Of a stretch of DNA of 64,000 bases, positions 38,902 to 49,104 are shown piece by piece. The translations under genes were made by a program, and so were the position numbers. The stretch covers positions 67 to 64,066 of the forward strand of contig CAWKCZ010000003.1 in NCBI GenBank assembly GCA_963848285.1, read 5' to 3'. Position 1 is the first letter of the stretch; every line of letters begins with the position of its first letter. The notes under the pieces were generated by a model. The model did not search any database. It was given only the letters and a program-made list of their open reading frames with translations, and had not been told where the DNA came from. This stretch comes from an uncultured delta proteobacterium. GTDB taxonomy: Bacteria > Desulfobacterota > Binatia > Binatales > Binataceae.

Positions 38902-39531
38902 ATGGCATCCGATTTTAAACCTGAGTTTTTTCGCCGCCTCGATGATTCCGAAGACGAGGGTTTTTACTCGGCGCCGCGCTTCGTCGTCCATATAGATGAA
39001 GGCGCCATCGCCAAAGTCGGCGCCATCTATGCGCAACTGCTTCCGCAAGGCGGCGCCATCCTCGACTTGATGAGCAGTTGGCGCACGCATCTGACCGAAC
39101 ACGTTCGGCCCTCGCGCGTGGTCGGCGTCGGCCTCAATCGCGATGAGATGGAGGACAATCCGCAACTCACCGAGGCCGTCGTTCACAACGTCAATGCGAA
39201 TCCGCGCCTGCCCTTCGATGACGCGCAGTTCGATGGCGCGATCATGACCGTCTCGGCGCAGTACCTGACGCATCCGATCGAAACATTCTCCGATGTCGGC
39301 CGCGTGCTGAAGCCGGGCGCGCCGTTCATCGTGACATTTTCCAATCGGATGTTCCCGACCAAGGCGGTTGCGATCTGGCAACACCTCGACGAGCGCGACC
39401 GGGTCGGGCTGGTGGGGCGCTACTTCAAGGACAGCGGCGCATTTGAGAAGATAGATGTGATCGACAAGAGCGCGCCGACCAATCCGCCCTCCGATCCGAT
39501 TTGGGCGGTGGTGGGATACCGAATCTCATGA
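38902..39531 (+). CDS. Class I SAM-dependent methyltransferase
   Basis: FYSAPRFVVHID, ILDLMSSW, FSNRMFPTKA. Confidence 0.85.
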   Translation: MASDFKPEFFRRLDDSEDEGFYSAPRFVVHIDEGAIAKVGAIYAQLLPQGGAILDLMSSWRTHLTEHVRPSRVVGVGLNRDEMEDNPQLTEAVVHNVNANPRLPFDDAQFDGAIMTVSAQYLTHPIETFSDVGRVLKPGAPFIVTFSNRMFPTKAVAIWQHLDERDRVGLVGRYFKDSGAFEKIDVIDKSAPTNPPSDPIWAVVGYRIS

Positions 39532-41128
39532 GCGCGAAAGGCGCTTGGTCAGGCTCGCGACGACGGTCAGAAGTTCCAGCGGCTCGATCGGCTTCGGCAC
39601 GTGCATTTGATATCCCGCCGATAGCACATTGAGGCGGTCCTGCGTACGGGCGAACGCGGTCAACGCGATGGCGGGAATTGCGCCACCTTGTTCGGGCGGC
39701 AGCGCGCGCAGTTTCCGCATCAGGCTGAAACCATCTTCATTAGGCATCCCGATGTCCGACACCAGCAGGTCGGGATGCCATTGCTCGATCAGCTCCAACG
39801 CGCGAGCAGCACTCGCCGCGGTTTTCAATTCCGCGCCCGCGTTGCTGAGGACCAGCGAAATCACCTCGCGCGCATCGGGTTCGTCATCGACCACCAGAAC
39901 CTTCAAACCGGCCAACGACGGGTCGTCGCCATGAAGAATTTGTGCCGCGGTCGGATGACTGCGCTCTTCCGCGGTCGAAGCGGGCTGGAGTGCGGCCATC
40001 AGCGGCAGATGCACGACGAACTGCGCCCCTTTGTCGCGTCCTTCACTCGCCGCGGTGACGTCGCCTCCGTGCAGTTGCGCGAGATGACGCGCGATGGTCA
40101 GGCCCAGGCCGAGGCCTCCATATTCGCGGGTACTGCCGGTACCGCCTTGGCGAAAGCGCTCGAAGATAAACGGCAGCACTTCCGCGGCGATTCCCTCACC
40201 GGTATCAGTGACGACGATTTCGACGTGCGAGTTAATCCGATGCAGCTGAATCTGCACTCTGCCGCCACGCGGAGTGAATTTGACCGAATTCGAAAGCAGG
40301 TTGGTAAAGACCTGCTGCAGCCGATCGGGATCGCCCGCGACCGGGCCGGCGCCCGGATCCAGAAACGTCTGTAATCGGATTCCCTTACCGGCGGCGGCAG
40401 GCCGCACCACCTCGAGCGCAGATTCGATGACGTCGATCAGGTGAAACGGCCGGATGTCGAGACGCATGCGTCCTGAAACGATCCGCGAGACATCGAGCAG
40501 GTCCGCAATCATCTGATTTTGCAATTGGGCGTTGCGTTGGATGGTGTCGATCGCGCGCGCGGCCTGGTCCTCGGTCAATCGGCCGGTCTTGCAGGAGCGA
40601 AGCCCATCCGGTGATAGCATTCAGTGGACTGCGCAGCTCATGCGAGACGACCGCGAGGAATTCGTCCTTGAGGCGATTGGCGGTTTCGGCGTCCTCGCGG
40701 GCCTGTTTTTCAGAGGCGTGCAGCCTTTCGCGTTCCTCTTCGGCGGCCTTGCGCTCGGTCACGTCGCGCGCAACCTTGGACGCGCCGATGACACGTCCGG
40801 TCGCGTCGCGCACCGGCGAAACCGTCAGCGAAAACTGCAGCAGGCGGCCGTCCTTGGTGCGGCGCACCGTTTCAAAATGATCGACGCGCTCGCCGCGTCC
40901 AATGCGAGCCAGAACGTCATCCTCCTCGGGCCACCGCTCGCGCGGTATGATCAATGTAATATGTTTGCCGATCGCTTCGTCGGCGCTGTAGCCGAGAATG
41001 CGCTCGGCCGCCGGGTTCCATGACGTGATGATGCCCGCGAGCGTTTTGCTGACTATGACGTCATCGGAAGAGGCGACGATCGCGGCGAGATGTGCGGCGA
41101 CGTCAGACGGTAATCGCGGTATAGTCAA
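39526..41128 (-). CDS. PAS-domain hybrid sensor histidine kinase/response regulator (frameshift near 40600)
   Basis: PAS (SWNPAAERILGY), SHELRSPL, NLLSNSVKF, GLGLGL, receiver VVDD..SDIGMP..KP. Confidence 0.92.
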
Positions 41129-41230
41129 AGCTTCTCTCTATGGTTCGGTCGGAAGTACCTGGAGCGATATAGAGATATGATAAATCTATCTTAACATGCA
41201 TAACTCGCAAATGTTTCGGAGAACGGCCGG

Positions 41231-41623
41231 ATGATTCAGCATCGAGGGCTGCGCCATCTCGCACTGAAGGTTTCCGATGTGGAGCGCGCGGTGAAGTTCT
41301 ACTCACGGGTGTTCGGCATGCGCCTCGTATGGCAACCCGACCCCGAAAATGCGTATCTCTCCTCGGGATGCGATAACCTCGCACTCCACCAAGGATCGCA
41401 TGGCGATGCCGATGCGCAGGTGCTCGATCACCTCGGCTTCATTGTACCGAGCATCGCCGAGGTCGAGGCGGCATGGTCATGGGCGCAGGCAGAGCATCTC
41501 GAGGTTGCGCATCCGTTCAAGCATCATCGCGATGGTTCCGCGTCATTTTATATTCGCGACCCCGACGGCAACGTGATCCAGGTGCTGTACGAACCAACCA
41601 TTTCTCCGCAACAGATTTCATAG
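41231..41623 (+). CDS. VOC/glyoxalase family protein
   Basis: LRHLALKV.D, DHLGF, FYIRDPDGN. Confidence 0.88.
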   Translation: MIQHRGLRHLALKVSDVERAVKFYSRVFGMRLVWQPDPENAYLSSGCDNLALHQGSHGDADAQVLDHLGFIVPSIAEVEAAWSWAQAEHLEVAHPFKHHRDGSASFYIRDPDGNVIQVLYEPTISPQQIS

Positions 41624-41655
41624 CGCCGACGGCTATACGCGGCGACAGGAACCTC

Positions 41656-42767
41656 ATGCTGAAAAATCGCGCCACCTCTGCCGGAACCGCCTCCTATGCT
41701 TCTCGTCATGCCGATATGCCGGGGAATTTTCGCAGCGTGCTCGGACTCGCGATCTCATCGATCGGACTCGGTACCTATCTCGGCGAGACCGACGAGGAAA
41801 CCGATCGCGCCTACGAAGAATCGATTCGCGCCGCGCTTGCGAGGTGGGATCAATCTCATCGATACGGCGGTGAACTATCGCTTCCAGCGCAGCGAGCGCA
41901 CCATCGGAAAAGTGATCGCCGAGATGGTCGCGGCCGGCGAGCTGAAGCGCGAAGAAGTCGTGGTCGCCACTAAGGGTGGCTACATCACCTTCGATGGTGA
42001 GGTGCCGCCCAATCCGCGCGAATGGTTCGAGGAGCACTTCATCCGCACCGGCATCGTTTCGGCGCGAGACATGGTCGAGGGCTCGCATTGCATGACGCCC
42101 AAGTACCTCGGCGCGATGCTCGAAATGAGCCGGCAAAACCTCGGCCTCGACACCATCGACATTTACTATGTCCACAATCCCGAGACCCAGCTCGCCGCCA
42201 TCGATCGCAAGGAATTCCTCGCGCGGATGGGCAAGGCTTTCGAATTCCTCGAGCGCGCGGTGACGGAAAACAAGATCGCATACTACGGCACCGCGACGTG
42301 GAATGGATTTCGCGCGCAGCAGACCGAGCGCGGATGGCTCTCGCTCGACGAGTTGTTGCGCGTCGCGCGCGAGGTCGGTGGCGACGACCATCATTTTCGC
42401 GCGATTCAGCTTCCCTACAACCTCGCGATGCCCGAAGCCGCGACCCTCGCGAATCAGGGCGCCGCCGAATTCGAAGACCACTCCGGTCGCGCTGGCGAAG
42501 GCTTTCGGCATGGCGGTATGTGCGAGCGCCTCGTTGCTGCAAGGCCGCCTCTCGCAGGGACTGCCGCCGATTCTCGCGGAGGCATTTCCGGGGCTCACCA
42601 CCGACGCGCAACGTTCGGTGCAGTTCGTGCGCTCGACCCCCGGCATCGACGTGGCGCTGGTCGGCATGAAATCGCAGGAGCACGTCGAGGACATCCTGGC
42701 GGCGATGCGCCAACCTCCCGCCTCGCGCGACGCGCTGATGAAGCTCTTCAGCCCCGCCAAGCAGTAA
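41656..42767 (+). CDS. Aldo/keto reductase (frameshifted)
   Basis: SSIGLGTY, IDTAVNY, ATKGG, YYVHNP, IQLPYNL. Confidence 0.88.
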
Positions 42768-42793
42768 CTTATCGATGCTCACGGATGTTGGTC

Positions 42794-43975
42794 TCACTTG
42801 CTCGCGATGGGGCGGCTGAAGGCCTCGATCATGTCGCGCCATCGATCGCCGAATGCGAGGATCATCACCTGCTGATTGATCTGCTCGTTGCTATCGAGGC
42901 TATGCATCGCCCCGCCGCCGGCGCGCGTCAGCACCTGATACGCGAGTTGGGTCTCGCGATAGAATTGTGGCAACGCGCCATCGGATTTTCCCGAACCGAG
43001 GTCGCCATGAATCTTTTGTTCGAAGGCCAGCTCGAACCGTTCATGCTCCAGGCGCGATAGATCGACCGCGTTGAACGTTCCATTGCGCGCACGAAATGCC
43101 TCGATCAGTTGCCGCGTCGGCGCGAAATCGTCCTTGGACGGAGGAGCATCGGCGACGAGCACGATGACCTTCTTCGCATACGGACGCCATTCCATTTTGT
43201 CGATCGCAGTCGCGATGCCGCCGCGCACATTCTCTTCCCATTCGTCCCCGCCGGCCGCTGCGATCGATCCGAGAAAGGCTTCCAGCTTCGCGGGCGACAA
43301 GGTGAGCGGCTGCGACTGGATGCCCTCGCCTCTGCCGCCATACACCACCATGCCGATTCTCGCCGTCGGCACCATCCGATGAATCGCCGCAACCAGTTCG
43401 CGCATCTTCGCTTTGACGTCCTGAATCACCAGCGACATGGAGCCGGTGCCGTCGATCACCAGCACCACATCGAGTCCTTTCCGTCGTAGCTCCATTAGAT
43501 AGCCGCCGAAACCGTTGCCGATACCGGGACCGTAGCCGCTTCCGATGCCATCACCGCGCCGCACTCCGATTCCACCCGAAGACCATCCGCGTACGTAAGT
43601 ATCGAGCGCGACCGAGTTCACCTCGGACGTAGCCACTACCGGCGCGCCAAGCGCGACCGGCGCGATCTCCGGCATCGGCTCTTCGGGAACCTCGAGGTCG
43701 CGCATCTCGCTGCCCCCGCCACCGCCGCCGCCAGCTTCGAGCGTAAGCAGCGTGAGATCGCGATTTCGATGCTCATGGATCGTGACGATCAGGAACAGCA
43801 GGAGGAGCGCATGCAGCGAAATCGAAAGCGGGAACGGCCCGCCAATGAAGTGAAGCGCATTGCGTAAGATGCTGTCGCGCTGCGACGAATCATCGCGGCG
43901 GCGCGCGCGCCTGATTAGATACGCAATCAAGATCACTGAGACGCAAGTCACCGTCGCCGCAATGACAATCGTCAT
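42794..43975 (-). CDS. Membrane-anchored vWA domain protein
   Basis: Two N-terminal TMs, Gly-rich linker, LVIDGTGSM, GGD..E, VADAPP; GGAGGTG RBS. Confidence 0.8.
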   Translation of the reverse strand: MTIVIAATVTCVSVILIAYLIRRARRRDDSSQRDSILRNALHFIGGPFPLSISLHALLLLFLIVTIHEHRNRDLTLLTLEAGGGGGGGSEMRDLEVPEEPMPEIAPVALGAPVVATSEVNSVALDTYVRGWSSGGIGVRRGDGIGSGYGPGIGNGFGGYLMELRRKGLDVVLVIDGTGSMSLVIQDVKAKMRELVAAIHRMVPTARIGMVVYGGRGEGIQSQPLTLSPAKLEAFLGSIAAAGGDEWEENVRGGIATAIDKMEWRPYAKKVIVLVADAPPSKDDFAPTRQLIEAFRARNGTFNAVDLSRLEHERFELAFEQKIHGDLGSGKSDGALPQFYRETQLAYQVLTRAGGGAMHSLDSNEQINQQVMILAFGDRWRDMIEAFSRPIASK

Positions 43976-44189: not shown

Positions 44190-45575
44190 ATGCGTCCGAA
44201 ATACCTGATCCTCGTCTTCGCAATCGCATCTCTCAGTCTAGTTGCGCCGCCGCCGACGTGGGCGCAGGCTTCGCCATCCGAGACCCCTCCATCCCCGGTG
44301 ACTCCGCCCGCGGGCAGCCTCGGCGCGAACGCGGGCGGCAAGAGGGCTGATCCCGAGCCGGCCGACCAGGCGGGATTTCCGCACGACCTCTATCGATGGG
44401 TTCTGCCGGCCGATAACCTCGGAGCGTCCGCCTGAGAAGATCGGACTCGGTCGCGCGCTGTTTTTCGATCGCCGCCTCTCCGCCGATGACAAGGAGAGTT
44501 GCTCGACCTGTCACGATCCCGAAAAGGGCTTCACCGATCAGCTCCCGACCTCGATGGGGATCCATAATCAGTTCGGCAAGCGCAATGCGCCGACCATCGT
44601 CAACGCGAATTTCAACATTCTGCAATTCTGGGATGGACGCGAACCGACCCTCGAGGAGCAGGCCAAGCGCCCGATTCTGAATCCGATCGAAATGGGCATG
44701 CCCGACGAGAAGACCGTGGTCGCCAAGCTTAACGCCGCGCCCGAGTATCAGAAAGCGTTCATGGAAGTCTTCGGGCATCCGCCGAATTACGACGACATGG
44801 TGAAAGCGATCGCGGCATTCGAGCGCACCCAGGTCGCCTTCGATGCGCCCTTCGACAAGTTCATGGCCGGCGATCGACAAGGCGCTCACCGAGCAGCAGA
44901 AGCGCGGATGGTCGATCTTCAATGGCAAGGGCCGCTGCATGTCGTGTCACGGAGTCAACCAGTGCAGCCGATGTTCAGCGACAACCGCTTCCACAACATC
45001 GGCGTGTCGGCGCACAACAAGGATTTCGTCGGGCTCGCGCGCAAGGCGCTTGCAGATCATCTCGTAGGGCGGCAGTGCCGGAGAAGATCGACCAGCTCGC
45101 GATTCAAACCGACATGAGCGAGCTCGGCCGCTTCCTCGTCACCAAGCAGCCGCACGATATCGGCGCGTTCCGCACCATGGGCCTGCGCAATCTGCTGGTC
45201 ACCGAGCCGTACTTCCACGACGGCTCGCAGGCGACGCTGTGGGACACCATCGATCATTACAACAAGGGCGGCGTGCAGAATCCCTATCTCGATGGCGGCA
45301 TCGTTCCACTCGGGCTGTCGGAGCAGGAGATTGATGACCTCGTCGCGTTTCTGAAATCGCTCACCAGCCCGCGCTATGCGGACGCGGCCGAGCATGAGTA
45401 TGCCGCGCAGCTCGCGCGCTCGAAGACCGATCGTCCGCAGCGCGACGTCGACGCCGCGATGGGACTCAAGGGACGCAACGATCCGAATCTGTCCGGCCCG
45501 TTTGGCGATATCGGACCCGACACAGGATCAGATGCAGGAAAATCCGGCGCTGCATTCGGCGGCACTGACAGATAG
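44190..45575 (+). CDS. Secreted diheme bCcP/MauG-superfamily enzyme, MauG-type (frameshifted)
   Basis: Signal peptide; CSTCH and CMSCH; RNAP, QFWDGR, FRT..LRN..TEPYFHDG; Tyr at His+14. Confidence 0.9.
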
Positions 45576-45596
45576 ATCTGAAACGAGGTTCGCGCA

Positions 45597-46748
45597 ATGG
45601 CGGTCCGGCACAAGAGCGTCGAAACGAAATATATGGAGGATCGCGACCGCGTGCATGCGCGGACTGCGCGGCCTCGACCGCCGCAGCTTCCTCAAAGTGC
45701 TGGCGCGCACGATGGGCGCGGTCGCGGCGAAGGGCCTGATGCCGCCGCATTCGTTCCAGCTCATCACGCTGGCCGATGCCGCGACCGACAAGGCCTTCGG
45801 GACCAAGGGCGCCGAGGGCAAGCGCCCGTTCACGTTCGCATACATTTCGGACACGCCATCTTTACGAGCGCAGCTGAATCAGCGCTTCGTGCGCGCCGCG
45901 GTCAAAGCAGTCGAGGACGTCAACGCGCTCGACCCGCAGCCGGATTTCGTGCTCTTCGGCGGCGATCTCGCTCAGCTCGGGCGCGCGCAAGGAACTCGAA
46001 CTCGGCAAGCAGATCCTCGATGAGCTGAAGGCGCCGGTTAAGATGATGGTCGGCGAGCACGACTGGTTCTACGACATGGGCGACACCTGGCAGGAAATGT
46101 TCGGCCCGCCCAATTACTCTTTCGACTGGAAGGGCGTCCACGTCATCACGCTGATGAGCGTGCATGAGAAGGATTTCTGGACCCCGCTCAAGATGACGCC
46201 CGAGCAGCGGATGCATACCGTCGCCGGACTCGACAACGGCACTCAGTCGCGCTTCGAAGTCGGCGACGAAGAGCGCGCGTGGCTGAAAAAGGATCTCGCG
46301 AAGGTGCCGCCGCGACGCCGATTCTGATCTTCTCGCATTCGCCGCTCTACAAATATTACCGCAACTGGAATTTCTGGACCGAGGACGCCGACGAGGTGCA
46401 GGAAATCCTGCGCCCCTACGAGCACGTCACCGTCATCCACGGCCATACCCATCAGATGCTGCTCAACCAGATTCACAACATCAGCTTCTACGGGATGCTC
46501 TCGACCGCGTGGCCGTGGCCCTATGCGCCGCAGGGACTGCCGCCGCTGACGGTGCAGATGAATCGCGCCGATCCGTTCGATCAGTTCGACGGCCTCGGTG
46601 ACGGACAGTTCAACGTTGCGCCCCGAGGGCCTGGCCGACAGCATCTACAATCTGTGGGATCGCAATCCGGTGACGGTGAAGGCGAGCTACCTGACCTCGC
46701 GCGGACAAGTCAACAAGCCCGCCGGCGCCGCAGTTCGCGAGCTACTGA
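45597..46748 (+). CDS. Tat-exported calcineurin-like metallophosphoesterase (frameshifted)
   Basis: DRRSFLK Tat motif; SDTH (broken by indel), GGDL, GEHD, HSP, HGHTH. Confidence 0.85.
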
Positions 46749-47561
46749 TGAAGCCTCGAAGCAAAATCCTCATCGCGCTGGCCGCTACCTCGATCGCAAG
46801 TTCGCTCGCGCTCGCGCAGCAGTTGCCGACGCATCAGACCGGCGCAGCCGCAAATGGCAGCGTCGTGGTCGAGCTATGCGACGGCGTCACCAAAACCGAA
46901 GTGAAGGGACTGAAGCCCGGCCAGGCGATGACGCATGAGCAGGCGCTCGCCGTCACGCATTCGCTGATGGCGGAGTGGGAGCGCAAGCATCCCGATGAGC
47001 ATTGGCAGATGGCGCAGGACACCAGCGCCAGCGAGGACGAAGAAACCCGCCCGCCGCAACGAATCGAATCCGGCCGGCAGCAGCCAATGCTCCCGCGGCG
47101 GAGAAGCCCTCCGCGGAACGCGCACCGCCGCGCACGCCACCTCGCCGCGCAGACGCCAATCCGGTCATCGGTGGTCCCGGCCACAAGCAGCCAAGCAGAC
47201 TCAGCAGGGCGACACCTACGCGAGCTTCAACGAGCGCGACTTCAAGGTGTGGCAGGCCAACACCGATCGCTTCGTCCAGCAGGGCAAGGAAGTTTTCCAC
47301 GACGCGAATAAGCTCGGCGGCACCATCGGCATCAGTTGCGATATGTGCCATCCGGACGCGCCGAATACGCATCCCGAGACCTATCCGAAGTACCAGGTGC
47401 AGCTACAGCGCGTGGCGTTGCTGCGCGACATGATCGAGTGGTGCATCGAGAATCCGGTCAAGGGCAAAACCATGGATCCCAACGATCCGCGCCTGCGCGC
47501 GCTCGAAGCCTACATCATCGCGCAACGCAAAGGCGTCCCGCTCGACTACGGCAAGCATTAG
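46748..47561 (+). CDS. Secreted monoheme cytochrome c of SoxA/TsdA-like His/Cys type (frameshifted linker)
   Basis: Signal peptide; SCDMCH...YPKY...LRDMIEWCIENPVKG...ALEAYI; TGATG overlap with the previous gene. Confidence 0.8.
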
Positions 47562-48089
47562 CCGCGGCGGAAGTATCCGATCATGCGCTCGCCGATCGCC
47601 GCTATATAGAAGACCGCGAGCAGCGGACACAGTTCTCGAAGTGCGGTTCCCGGAACTGCCGGCGCAGGTGCGACGCTCAGAATGATCACCAGCGCGAAGT
47701 TGATGATGCCGCCGAAGTGGCCGAGGCGGCTCTTGATTGGCGCGCCGGCAAGCAGCATCGAGTCGATCGCATACTGCGAGAATGAGATCGCGATCAGCAT
47801 CGGAATGTAGAACGGAATGCGCACCGATGCACGCTTCGCAGGTCAGCGCGGTCAACACGAAGACGATGTCCGCGAGGCTGTCGAGCCATCGTCCGACGCC
47901 GTCGGCGATTCCCATCCGGCGCGCGAGGCGTCCGTCGAGGAGGTCGGATATCGCGCCGGCGATCGCGATGGCTGCCGAGCAGCATCGCGCCTCGGTAGCC
48001 GGCCTCGAACGCGCATAGCCACGCCATCGCGAGCGATGACGCGCGCGGCGCTGAGCAGGTTCGCCGCCTGCGAACGTATCGGGAAACAA
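47558..48089 (-). CDS. CDP-alcohol phosphatidyltransferase (frameshifted; start approximate)
   Basis: [11 protein letters not shown]....G.WLDSLAD signature. Confidence 0.85.
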
Positions 48090-48139
48090 CTCGTGCGCGG
48101 AGTGATGTGGCTCGCCGCTTCCGTTACAATCGATGCCTC

Positions 48140-49104
48140 ATGTCTAAAACGCGCACCATCCAGATCATCAGCCACGGACCCTCATGCCTCGACGGCGTGA
48201 TGGCGGCCGCGGCTATCGCCAGGTTTTTCGAGGGCAATCACGTGTATCGCGAACCTGCCCGGCAACAACGAAAGCGACCGCGCCATCCAGAGTCTCAAGC
48301 TGCGCGACAAATCCGGCGCCGACGAAATCTGGATCACCGACCTTTCATGGACCAAGCCGGAAACCGCAGCGCATCTGAAGGAACTCGCCGAGGCGGGCGC
48401 GCGCGTGTTCTGGATCGACCACCATCGCACCGCAGTCTCGCGCGCCGACGCGCCTGAGTTCAAGGTGCCGTTTGCGGGCAAGGTGTTGTCGGAAAAATAT
48501 TCCGCCGCGCGCCTGACCTTCGAGTTTCTCAAGAAGCGCGAGGACGAGCTGCTCGGCGGAGAAGCGCCGCGACTTCGAAGCGTTCCGGCGCTTCGCGGAA
48601 ATCGCCGACGATCACGATCGCTGGATTCATAAAATTCCCGAGTCGCCCGATTGGGCGCTCGCGGTGCAGACTCTGGGTGGAATTCCGTCGTATCGCGAGA
48701 TCCTCAAGTTGCGCGAACCCGTAATGTCACGCCGACTGCGCGACGCGTTGCGCGCCGGGCAGGACGGCCTGAAGAAGAGCATGGACCTCGCGGATTCGAC
48801 GCTGGTGCTACGCCCGTTGAGCAACGGCGTCACCCTGCGCACCGCATGCTGCTTCGGCTACAGCAGCGAGGTCGCCGCGCATCTGTATGAGAACACGACG
48901 CAAACGGTTATCGCGCTGTTCGACCTGCGCAGCCAGGGCGTGAGCCTGCGCCGCAGCGCCGATTGCGAAGTCGATTTATCAAAGCTGGCGGAGCAGTTCG
49001 GCGGCGGCGGACATGCGGCAGCCAGCGGCTTCATGACTCCCGAGCTGCGCAAGGTCCCGGCCGAGCGCCTCGCCGAGCTCCTCGCGGGCCGCCTGGAGCG
49101 CTAA
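48140..49104 (+). CDS. DHH/DHHA1 phosphoesterase (frameshifted)
   Basis: SH..CLDG, ITDL, WIDHH, SLR, GGGGHAAASG. Confidence 0.85.

Follow-up and report, generated by a model that had tools for sequence, protein, structure and literature searches.

Three co-oriented genes for a MauG-type diheme enzyme, a metallophosphoesterase-fold protein and a SoxA/TsdA-like cytochrome, probably one uncharacterised redox machine of soil bacteria

A stretch of 64,000 nucleotides from an uncultured member of the Binatia (contig CAWKCZ010000003.1) was analysed; this whole stretch is called the window. At 44190-47561, on the plus strand, it contains three co-oriented genes for exported proteins, as read from a six-frame list of open reading frames (ORFs) and a three-frame translation. 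By sequence criteria, gene 1 (44190..45575, plus strand) codes for an exported MauG-type (His/Tyr) diheme enzyme; it was delimited from the frames, the indels, a CCP_MauG match and the orthologue P0001. Gene 2 (45597..46748, plus strand; frames, indels and orthologue P0002) codes for a predicted twin-arginine (Tat), metallophosphoesterase-fold dimetal protein. Gene 3 (46748..47561, plus strand; PF21342 and SoxA 1h31) codes for an exported N-domain followed by a low-complexity linker and a SoxA/TsdA-like monoheme cytochrome c. This trio, present in soil bacteria of several phyla, is probably one uncharacterised redox machine. The reading favoured here, to which about an even chance is given, is that the three genes are one self-contained periplasmic redox module in which the diheme enzyme acts on, or together with, the dimetal protein using H2O2.

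The first line of evidence is the conservation of the gene order. One genome per species was scanned with an alignment of gene 2 relatives, which gave 549 confirmed relatives; the loci described here are the best 80 of them (at least 60% identity). A homologue of gene 1 is located directly upstream of gene 2 in 80 of the 80 loci and a homologue of gene 3 directly downstream in 79, the contig of the single exception ending 60 nt past gene 2. According to the record titles, these loci belong to Binatia, many Myxococcota, Methylocella, Methylocapsa, Acidobacteriota and Steroidobacteraceae, and also to metagenome-assembled genomes (MAGs) labelled Planctomycetales and Desulfobacteraceae. Cultured Myxococcota are included, i.e., Cystobacter, Myxococcus, Corallococcus, Pyxidicoccus, Hyalangium, Chondromyces and Minicystis. 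At shorter evolutionary range, the region was matched in 27 of 41 genomes when 40 relatives and the source genome were searched at the DNA level, and all three genes were matched in 20 of the 40 relatives, three of which come from other families of the class. In metagenome protein sets, more than 4000 homologues were found for gene 2 and more than 4000 for gene 3. The initial annotation had proposed a real, dedicated exported module that should be syntenic in other genomes; the order gene 1-gene 2-gene 3, kept in the best loci of several phyla, agrees with both points.

The second line of evidence is natural fusion. In a search limited to longer proteins, two chains, P0394 (744 aa) and P0395 (745 aa), were found to combine PF03150 and PF00149, the families of genes 1 and 2. 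Residues 47-399 of P0394 have 44% identity to gene 1 and keep its conserved Tyr, and residues 424-725 have 49% identity to gene 2 and keep its GEHD and WPW motifs (see below). Taken together, the fusions and the synteny argue for a diheme enzyme and a dimetal protein that function in direct contact. Neither P0394 nor P0395 has twin arginines. Their linker (approximately 395-423) contains a hydrophobic stretch with an AxA-like end at the place of the gene 2 Tat signal; it looks like a relic signal peptide deprived of its twin arginines. P0396, considered as a third fusion, was discounted since it looks like a frameshift-merged ORF.

The three genes are tightly coupled. There are 21 nt between the stop of gene 1 (45575) and the ATG of gene 2 (45597), and the stop of gene 2 and the start of gene 3 overlap as TGATG at 46746-46750; the gap of about 20 bp and the overlap initially reported for three exported genes are thus accurate. 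The motifs that had been listed for genes 1, 2 and 3 were likewise all retrieved at their window positions, including the Tyr codon at 45258. These motifs are spread over all three reading frames and every gene hops frames. A pairwise alignment with L002, the closest good genome (89% nucleotide identity), reveals about 20 frame-changing indels of 1-2 nt in the conserved coding sequence of the window. L002 itself has intact ORFs of 452, 382 and 268 codons for genes 1, 2 and 3, respectively, with a gap of 24 nt between genes 1 and 2 and an identical TGATG overlap. The genes next to the trio are also split between frames, therefore the indels hit the whole neighbourhood and not the triad alone. 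Since, in addition, the source genome has 7 contigs with 69% marker completeness, the relatives are intact and L003, another low-completeness relative, has the same type of split matches, the breaks are probably indel errors of long-read assembly rather than decay. The protein analyses were run on the intact orthologues P0001 (gene 1), P0002 (gene 2) and P0003 (gene 3). With Pfam, the window fragments gave CCP_MauG at 3.5e-55 (44401-45114), SoxA-TsdA_cyt-c at 1.6e-9 and a weak Metallophos match; the intact orthologues gave CCP_MauG (PF03150) at 3e-58, Metallophos at 7.5e-16 and SoxA-TsdA_cyt-c at 1.2e-9.

P0001 has a Sec-type signal and two CxxCH motifs. In the window (all gene 1 features are on the plus strand), the first CxxCH (CSTCH, 44500..44514) belongs to the peroxide-binding heme domain, with its Cys and His present in all 77 orthologues that align there (4 gaps). 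The second (CMSCH, 44936..44950) belongs to the second heme and is found in 81/81 orthologues. The window sequence also contains the motifs RNAP (44581-44592) and PYFH (45207-45218). The Trp of QFWDGR (44623..44640; W141 in the orthologue), i.e., the inter-heme Trp, is kept in 73 of the 81 orthologues. The Tyr of DHYNKGG (codon 45258..45260; Y351 in the orthologue) is placed 14 residues past the PYFH histidine, is a Tyr in all 79 aligned orthologues and is the predicted axial ligand of the second heme. This position is of importance since, in passages of PMC11892367, His-Met versus His-Tyr ligation at the second heme is what separates canonical from MauG-type enzymes.

By alignment, Y351 is matched to a Tyr in MbnH (6e1c) and in BthA (6nx0), and to the axial Met in 1iqc and 1eb7, the Met-bearing peroxidases being those of Nitrosomonas and Pseudomonas. 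In one ungapped HMMER range it falls on residue 294 of the MauG chain 3l4m_A, and in a second ungapped range W141 falls on residue 93 of the same chain. The heme-2 axial position that the initial annotation gave to this Tyr, and the comparison that it drew with Tyr294 and Trp93 of MauG, are therefore upheld at the level of alignment. With two CxxCH, the Tyr and the inter-heme Trp, gene 1 is a MauG-type (His-Tyr class) enzyme according to its sequence. On the same basis it does not qualify as an equivalog of MauG or of MbnH, both NCBIfam scores of P0001 being under the cut-off: 225 bits versus 363 for the MbnH family (TIGR04039) and 193 bits versus 444 for MauG (TIGR03791). The comparison with solved structures gives a composite picture. 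The N-terminal half is most alike to classical peroxidases (about 1e-50), with which the distal-pocket stretch of the first heme is conserved. For the C-terminal half MbnH is the nearest (52.5 bits), the remaining matches having at most 28 bits. Over its whole length in one stretch, P0001 aligns only with MbnH 6e1c (1.4e-41) and MauG (about 1e-31), BthA being distant (1e-18). According to passages of PMC11892367, MauG, MbnH and BthA form a bis-Fe(IV) state, and those His/Tyr enzymes for which a target is known or proposed (MauG and MbnH) carry out H2O2-driven protein oxidation and not detoxification.

The metal ligands of metallophosphoesterases are carried by the motifs DxH, GD, GNH[DE], H and GHxH. 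Gene 2 has the complete set, with one deviation: motif III reads GEHD (46052..46063, plus strand), i.e., a Glu replaces the metal-binding Asn, and it is followed by an invariant Trp (E153, H154, D155 and W156 in 81/81 orthologues). In the sequence alignment, this GEHD pairs with the GNHD of GpdQ. GHTH (46441-46452, plus strand), GGDLA and SHSP are also present in the window gene, and D85, H87, D123, H247, H283 and H285 are, like the residues of motif III, found in 81/81 orthologues. Tat export of the protein is predicted from the conserved RRxFLK, written RRSFLK in the window (45679..45696, plus strand), the twin arginines being kept in at least 98% of the 81 orthologues; P0002 stays just under the cut-off of the Tat models (15.9 versus 22.7 for PF10518 and 15.2 versus 16.7 for TIGR01409).

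The AlphaFold model of gene 2, built with 55 sequences, has a pLDDT of 83.7. Searched with Foldseek (range 2e-15 to 1e-10), it matches GpdQ (2e-15) and Rv0805 best, then purple acid phosphatases, while the nearest 5'-nucleotidase-type folds rank only 44th and 49th. Thus, by modelled fold and by Pfam, gene 2 is a member of the metallophosphoesterase superfamily whose motif III is off canon and for which hydrolysis is only putative. Its homologues are publicly annotated as 3',5'-cyclic-AMP phosphodiesterase or Icc protein. The protein contains no Cys, 9 of its 10 Trp are invariant, and it has a C-terminal extension of about 90 residues. Two of these Trp, W305 and W307, form a WxW motif (WPW, 46510..46518, plus strand) within STAWPWPY, in the frame-1 row that starts at 46501; both are present in 81/81 orthologues. 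Outside the triad clade and its nearest relatives W156, W194, W305 and W307 do not occur, while W228 and W257 extend through the whole family. When 1.84 billion representatives were searched with gene 2, only 112 clusters reached E ≤1e-30, and the ESM Atlas gave nothing beyond generic metallophosphoesterase clusters.

P0003 is organised, from the N-terminus, as a Sec signal, an N-domain of about 60 residues, a low-complexity linker of variable length rich in Ala, Pro and Glu, and a C-terminal cytochrome c domain. This last domain scores 38.5 bits with PF21342 (SoxA/TsdA cytochrome c; cut-off 27), versus 31 bits with the SoxA NCBIfam equivalog, for which the cut-off is 110. The heme-binding motif CDMCH (47337..47351, plus strand) is present in 78/78 aligned orthologues. 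So is a distal Cys, located in EWCIEN (47436..47453, plus strand), which is the predicted sixth ligand of the heme; the region of this residue (Cys230) aligns weakly with the heme-ligand Cys regions of both SoxA domains of 1h31 (E 8e-4). A His/Cys ligation of the gene 3 heme is thereby predicted. The N-domain has one single conserved Cys, in ELCDG (46871..46885, plus strand), a Cys in 74 of 80 orthologues, and LCDG is kept in Myxococcota and Alphaproteobacteria; in the ESM Atlas no usable match was found for this domain. The longer homologues P0151, P0153, P0155, P0157 and P0174, considered as fusions, merely have longer linkers. In public databases the homologues are annotated as thiosulfate dehydrogenase. 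A predicted complex of gene 2 (75-382) and gene 3 (27-268) with heme and two Fe scored 0.13, the mark being 0.32, and weighs neither way.

Family membership, residue conservation, strict synteny and the existence of the fusions are what the data show. The mechanism proposed here goes further: its oxidant (H2O2), its axial ligands, the part played by gene 3 and the direct oxidation of the gene 2 protein are what we infer. H2O2 would react at the peroxidase-like first heme of the gene 1 protein, and the oxidising equivalents would be stored with the help of the His/Tyr-ligated second heme. They would then be delivered at long range, via tryptophans, directly to the gene 2 protein as dedicated partner. 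Two outcomes may be considered: (i) a Trp-derived ligand or cofactor could be installed near the GEHD site, as MbnH does in MbnP; (ii) the dimetal centre of gene 2 could be driven to a higher oxidation state. The gene 3 protein, with a low-potential His/Cys heme on a flexible tether and translationally coupled to gene 2, would bring electrons to this pair or take them from it.

The idea that the diheme enzyme acts on its neighbour, put forward initially together with cofactor maturation, is supported by the fusions and by the BthA-phosA precedent; this action may be a single maturation or an electron transfer at each turnover. The 1:1 fusion, together with the electron-transfer domains found on relatives of gene 2, speaks rather for a lasting partnership in catalysis. 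Maturation is favoured, in turn, by what MauG and MbnH are known to do and by the WxW parallel. In passages of PMC11951088, MbnP is described as Trp-rich, and Trp174, in its conserved WxW, as the residue converted to kynurenine by MbnH; the WPW and the Trp richness of gene 2 are a parallel to this, not a proof. It is tentatively suggested, as a less probable extension, that the gene 2 protein is not a hydrolase at all but the catalytic subunit of a new periplasmic oxidoreductase; the diheme module would then, with H2O2, make or continually re-oxidise a high-valent dimetal site or a Trp-derived cofactor, and the tethered His/Cys cytochrome would relay the electrons.

Several points weigh against the favoured reading. 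The synteny counts cover the best-scoring 80 of the 549 relatives, the other 469 being outside the count. The Tat and ligand assignments of the triad come from sequence alone; AlphaFold run on gene 1 without an alignment reached a pLDDT of 35, and the Tyr was placed by sequence alignment. A PerR/Irr-like regulator of the Fur family, directly upstream and co-oriented, is compatible with a peroxide/iron link and was found in at least 4 lineages, yet it is confined to 8 of the 80 loci. A 1:1 fusion is easier to reconcile with two lasting catalytic partners than with a single maturation event, which weakens the variant in which gene 1 matures a cofactor. Finally, some distant relatives of gene 2 that share GEHD carry other domains at the C-terminus, i.e., a cupredoxin in P0353 and P0361 and a Rieske domain in P0348, which suggests that the GEHD branch exchanges electrons. 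These relatives have lost, by replacement or deletion, W156, the W194 region, W305 and W307. The cupredoxin-fused branch is abundant in soil metagenomes (596 relatives, of which the best 80 loci were taken, L091-L170), and a gene 1-like or gene 3-like neighbour was found in none of these 80 loci. The MauG-type enzyme is hence a feature of the triad clade only, and redox activity of the fold may not require one.

This last group of observations bears on the most serious competing explanation, judged unlikely, according to which the trio is a substrate:H2O2 oxidoreductase. The dimetal protein would oxidise a small, strongly reducing substrate (e.g., a metal ion, or the precursor of an oxyanion of the phosphate or sulfate type), and the electrons would go to the His/Cys cytochrome and from there to the diheme enzyme, which would reduce H2O2. 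The cupredoxin and Rieske domains fused to GEHD relatives are in line with such a flow of electrons, the gene 1-gene 2 fusions suit a permanent catalytic pair, the first heme pocket is like that of true peroxidases, and PerR/Irr-like regulators adjoin the 8 loci mentioned above. His/Cys and His/Tyr hemes are both low-potential and could be matched partners. However, no neighbouring gene hints at a substrate, and the fusion joins the diheme and dimetal domains rather than placing the cytochrome between them. Moreover, passages of PMC11892367 describe MauG and MbnH as using H2O2 on proteins, not for detoxification.

A compact Sox-like chemistry had also been envisaged initially. In this scheme the gene 3 heme would couple a sulfur anion (e.g., thiosulfate) to the Cys of its own N-domain, used as a SoxY-like arm, gene 2 would hydrolyse the adduct like SoxB, and the diheme enzyme would take the electrons. 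SoxB, too, is a dimetal enzyme exported via Tat and belongs to the same superfamily. The PF21342 match of gene 3, the sub-cut-off match to the SoxA NCBIfam model, the Cys aligned with both SoxA ligand Cys and the single conserved N-domain Cys on a flexible linker go in the same direction. Nevertheless, gene 2 is nearest to GpdQ, Rv0805 and purple acid phosphatases, with 5'-nucleotidase-type folds far lower, and SoxB is a member of the 5'-nucleotidase-type family. SoxY had no match in the genome (69% complete), the alignment to SoxA is weak, the carriers are soil Myxococcota, Binatia and relatives of methanotrophs, and the flanks have no sulfur genes. The marks of a Sox system are thus lacking (no SoxY in the genome, gene 2 not of the 5'-nucleotidase type, gene 3 well below the SoxA cut-off), and the proposal, which finds little support, is considered very improbable.

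It could also be supposed that the three are independent ordinary genes, i.e., a peroxidase, a phosphodiesterase and a carrier cytochrome co-transcribed by chance, or pseudogenes in this genome. The public annotations of the homologues (cAMP phosphodiesterase, Icc, thiosulfate dehydrogenase) are consistent with ordinary genes, and the many frameshifts of the window copies with pseudogenes. But an association kept in 80/80 and 79/80 loci, across phyla and with variable flanks, the fusions, the Asn-to-Glu change and the predicted His/Tyr ligand all speak against independent ordinary functions. As for decay, the window neighbours are frameshifted too, the assembly has 7 contigs at low completeness and L003 is split alike. 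This explanation is judged improbable.

The least probable explanation is that gene 1 is the MauG that matures an amine dehydrogenase of the genome, its triad neighbours being unrelated. The genome does code for an enzyme of the tryptophan tryptophylquinone (TTQ) type: contig 7 carries, at about 471.8-473.6 kb (L171:7845-9556), the heavy-chain and light-chain genes of a dehydrogenase for methylamine or aromatic amines, and a c-type cytochrome motif follows them. No CCP_MauG/diheme gene was found beside them, and the whole genome has two CCP_MauG-family genes in all. The light chain occurs in 19 of the 41 genomes of the group, the source genome (G000) included, and in 13 of the 20 relatives that have all three genes. 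It had no match in the other 7 of these 20, is present without the triad in 4 relatives, and was found in none of the 5 triad-bearing Myxococcota and Methylocapsa genomes; from these counts gene 1 is therefore not simply the MauG of that enzyme, and this assignment was rejected. In addition, the score of gene 1 remains at 193 bits for an equivalog cut-off of 444, and strict synteny and fusion bind it to gene 2. A Sox analogue, a peroxidase plus a phosphatase, and a true MauG are thus all less likely than a diheme enzyme acting on the dimetal protein.

The trio resembles several known systems without being identical to any. One precedent for gene 1 is MbnH with its partner, the copper protein MbnP: the Tyr position is the same, MbnH 6e1c is the nearest match of the C-terminal half and aligns in one single stretch, and in both cases the partner gene is adjacent and its product Trp-rich, with a WxW that is invariant in gene 2. 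The differences are the score (225 versus 363 bits), the metallophosphoesterase fold of the partner, the lack of an MbnP match in the genome (69% complete), and the third gene, for a His/Cys-type cytochrome, that the triad always adds. With MauG and pre-methylamine dehydrogenase, gene 1 shares two CxxCH and an inter-heme Trp and a Tyr aligned on residues 93 and 294; contrary to MauG, it lies outside a mau cluster and far below the equivalog cut-off, and the triad exists in genomes where no light chain was found. It had been stated that no mau, mbn or sox genes are present in the window; this is consistent with the results seen, no whole-window scan having been aimed at them.

A parallel for the pair formed by genes 1 and 2 is BthA/phosA of Burkholderia, i.e., a MauG-type diheme enzyme plus an exported partner of the metallophosphoesterase superfamily. 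According to passages of PMC6405878, bthA always adjoins a gene for a putative purple acid phosphatase, and BthA was suggested to oxidise that partner. Gene 1 is distant from BthA (E 1e-18), and in passages of PMC11892367 BthA is described as having neither the inter-heme Trp nor the calcium site, whereas gene 1 has the Trp. In contrast with phosA, gene 2 is GpdQ/Rv0805-like with Glu for Asn, and the triad has a SoxA-like cytochrome, which goes unmentioned in the passages of PMC6405878. Compared to GpdQ, Rv0805 and the purple acid phosphatases, which are the best structural matches of the gene 2 model, all metal-ligand motifs are found again, but the identity is about 20%, and gene 2 differs by GEHD instead of GNHD, a Tat motif, the C-terminal extension, nine invariant Trp and obligatory heme-protein neighbours. 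Gene 3, finally, is like SoxA/TsdA by a domain above the Pfam cut-off and a Cys aligned with the heme-ligand Cys of SoxA. It is unlike them by its single heme domain, a score under the SoxA cut-off, the lack of a SoxX, SoxYZ or TsdB partner, and an LCDG N-domain and a low-complexity linker that are its own.

A MauG-type enzyme with a dedicated partner is thus a known kind of system. What appears to be new is a Glu-variant partner of metallophosphoesterase fold, an obligatory SoxA-like cytochrome and a wide distribution. Literature searches gave no publication on the trio, the closest being the BthA paper (PMC6405878); that the cluster was not previously characterised, as initially supposed, is in agreement with these searches. 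MauG-type diheme enzymes are rare cases of long-range, peroxide-driven protein oxidation, among which a substrate is known or proposed only for MauG and MbnH, the target of BthA being still unknown. The trio would be a third, very widespread case of a diheme enzyme with its partner, as at least 549 gene 2 relatives exist in species-representative genomes, and it may also account for the pairing of BthA with phosA in Burkholderia. Since strict synteny and natural fusion identify the partner, the action of the diheme enzyme on the phosphatase-fold protein is directly testable in cultured Myxococcota or in Methylocapsa. The trio further points to a redox-active branch of the metallophosphoesterases, with Glu for Asn, fused electron-transfer domains and an automatic label of cAMP phosphodiesterase. 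Within the superfamily, the GEHD clade may form a redox branch that has gone unrecognised; this would hold for the wider GEHD family if gene 2 were indeed an oxidoreductase subunit.

The flanks of the 80 loci were clustered using all ORFs. No further gene was found in more than 14 of the 80 loci, and among these flanks there was no gene indicating a substrate and none of sulfur metabolism. The recurring neighbours are lineage-limited. A ferritin-like gene takes the place of the regulator upstream in 9 of the 80 loci, all of them Binatus, and is again compatible with a peroxide/iron link; an ECF sigma factor is near the triad in about 10 of the 80. The PerR/Irr-like regulators are located 5' of gene 1 in L023, L031, L034, L037, L077, L082, L088 and L089, and their best sub-cut-off matches are the PerR and Irr models, not Fur. 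In some loci, e.g., L019 and L013, AT-rich palindromes occur about 20-60 nt 5' of the first in-frame start of gene 1, in DNA that is otherwise GC-rich; by eye they resemble a Fur-type operator and are putative sites at most. The proteins of the cupredoxin branch have a Tat signal, and their neighbours code for an ECF sigma factor, an anti-sigma factor, a DUF2231 membrane protein and extra cupredoxins.

The split neighbours of the triad extend over window positions 39526-43060 and 47403-49104. They are a PAS/histidine kinase gene (39.5-41.1 kb), an aldo-keto-reductase-like gene (41.7-43.1 kb) and, downstream, a CDP-alcohol-transferase-like gene and a DHH/DHHA1 gene (47.4-49.1 kb). In the whole genome, gene 3 is the sole match of PF21342. 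The second CCP_MauG-family gene is located on contig 3 at 983599-985137, on the minus strand (L172:3599-5137), and codes for 513 residues with 26% identity to gene 1. Its product gives weak CCP_MauG and RoxA-like matches, and it too has a Tyr where the axial ligand is aligned. This second diheme gene is convergent to a gene for an FAD-dependent monooxygenase.

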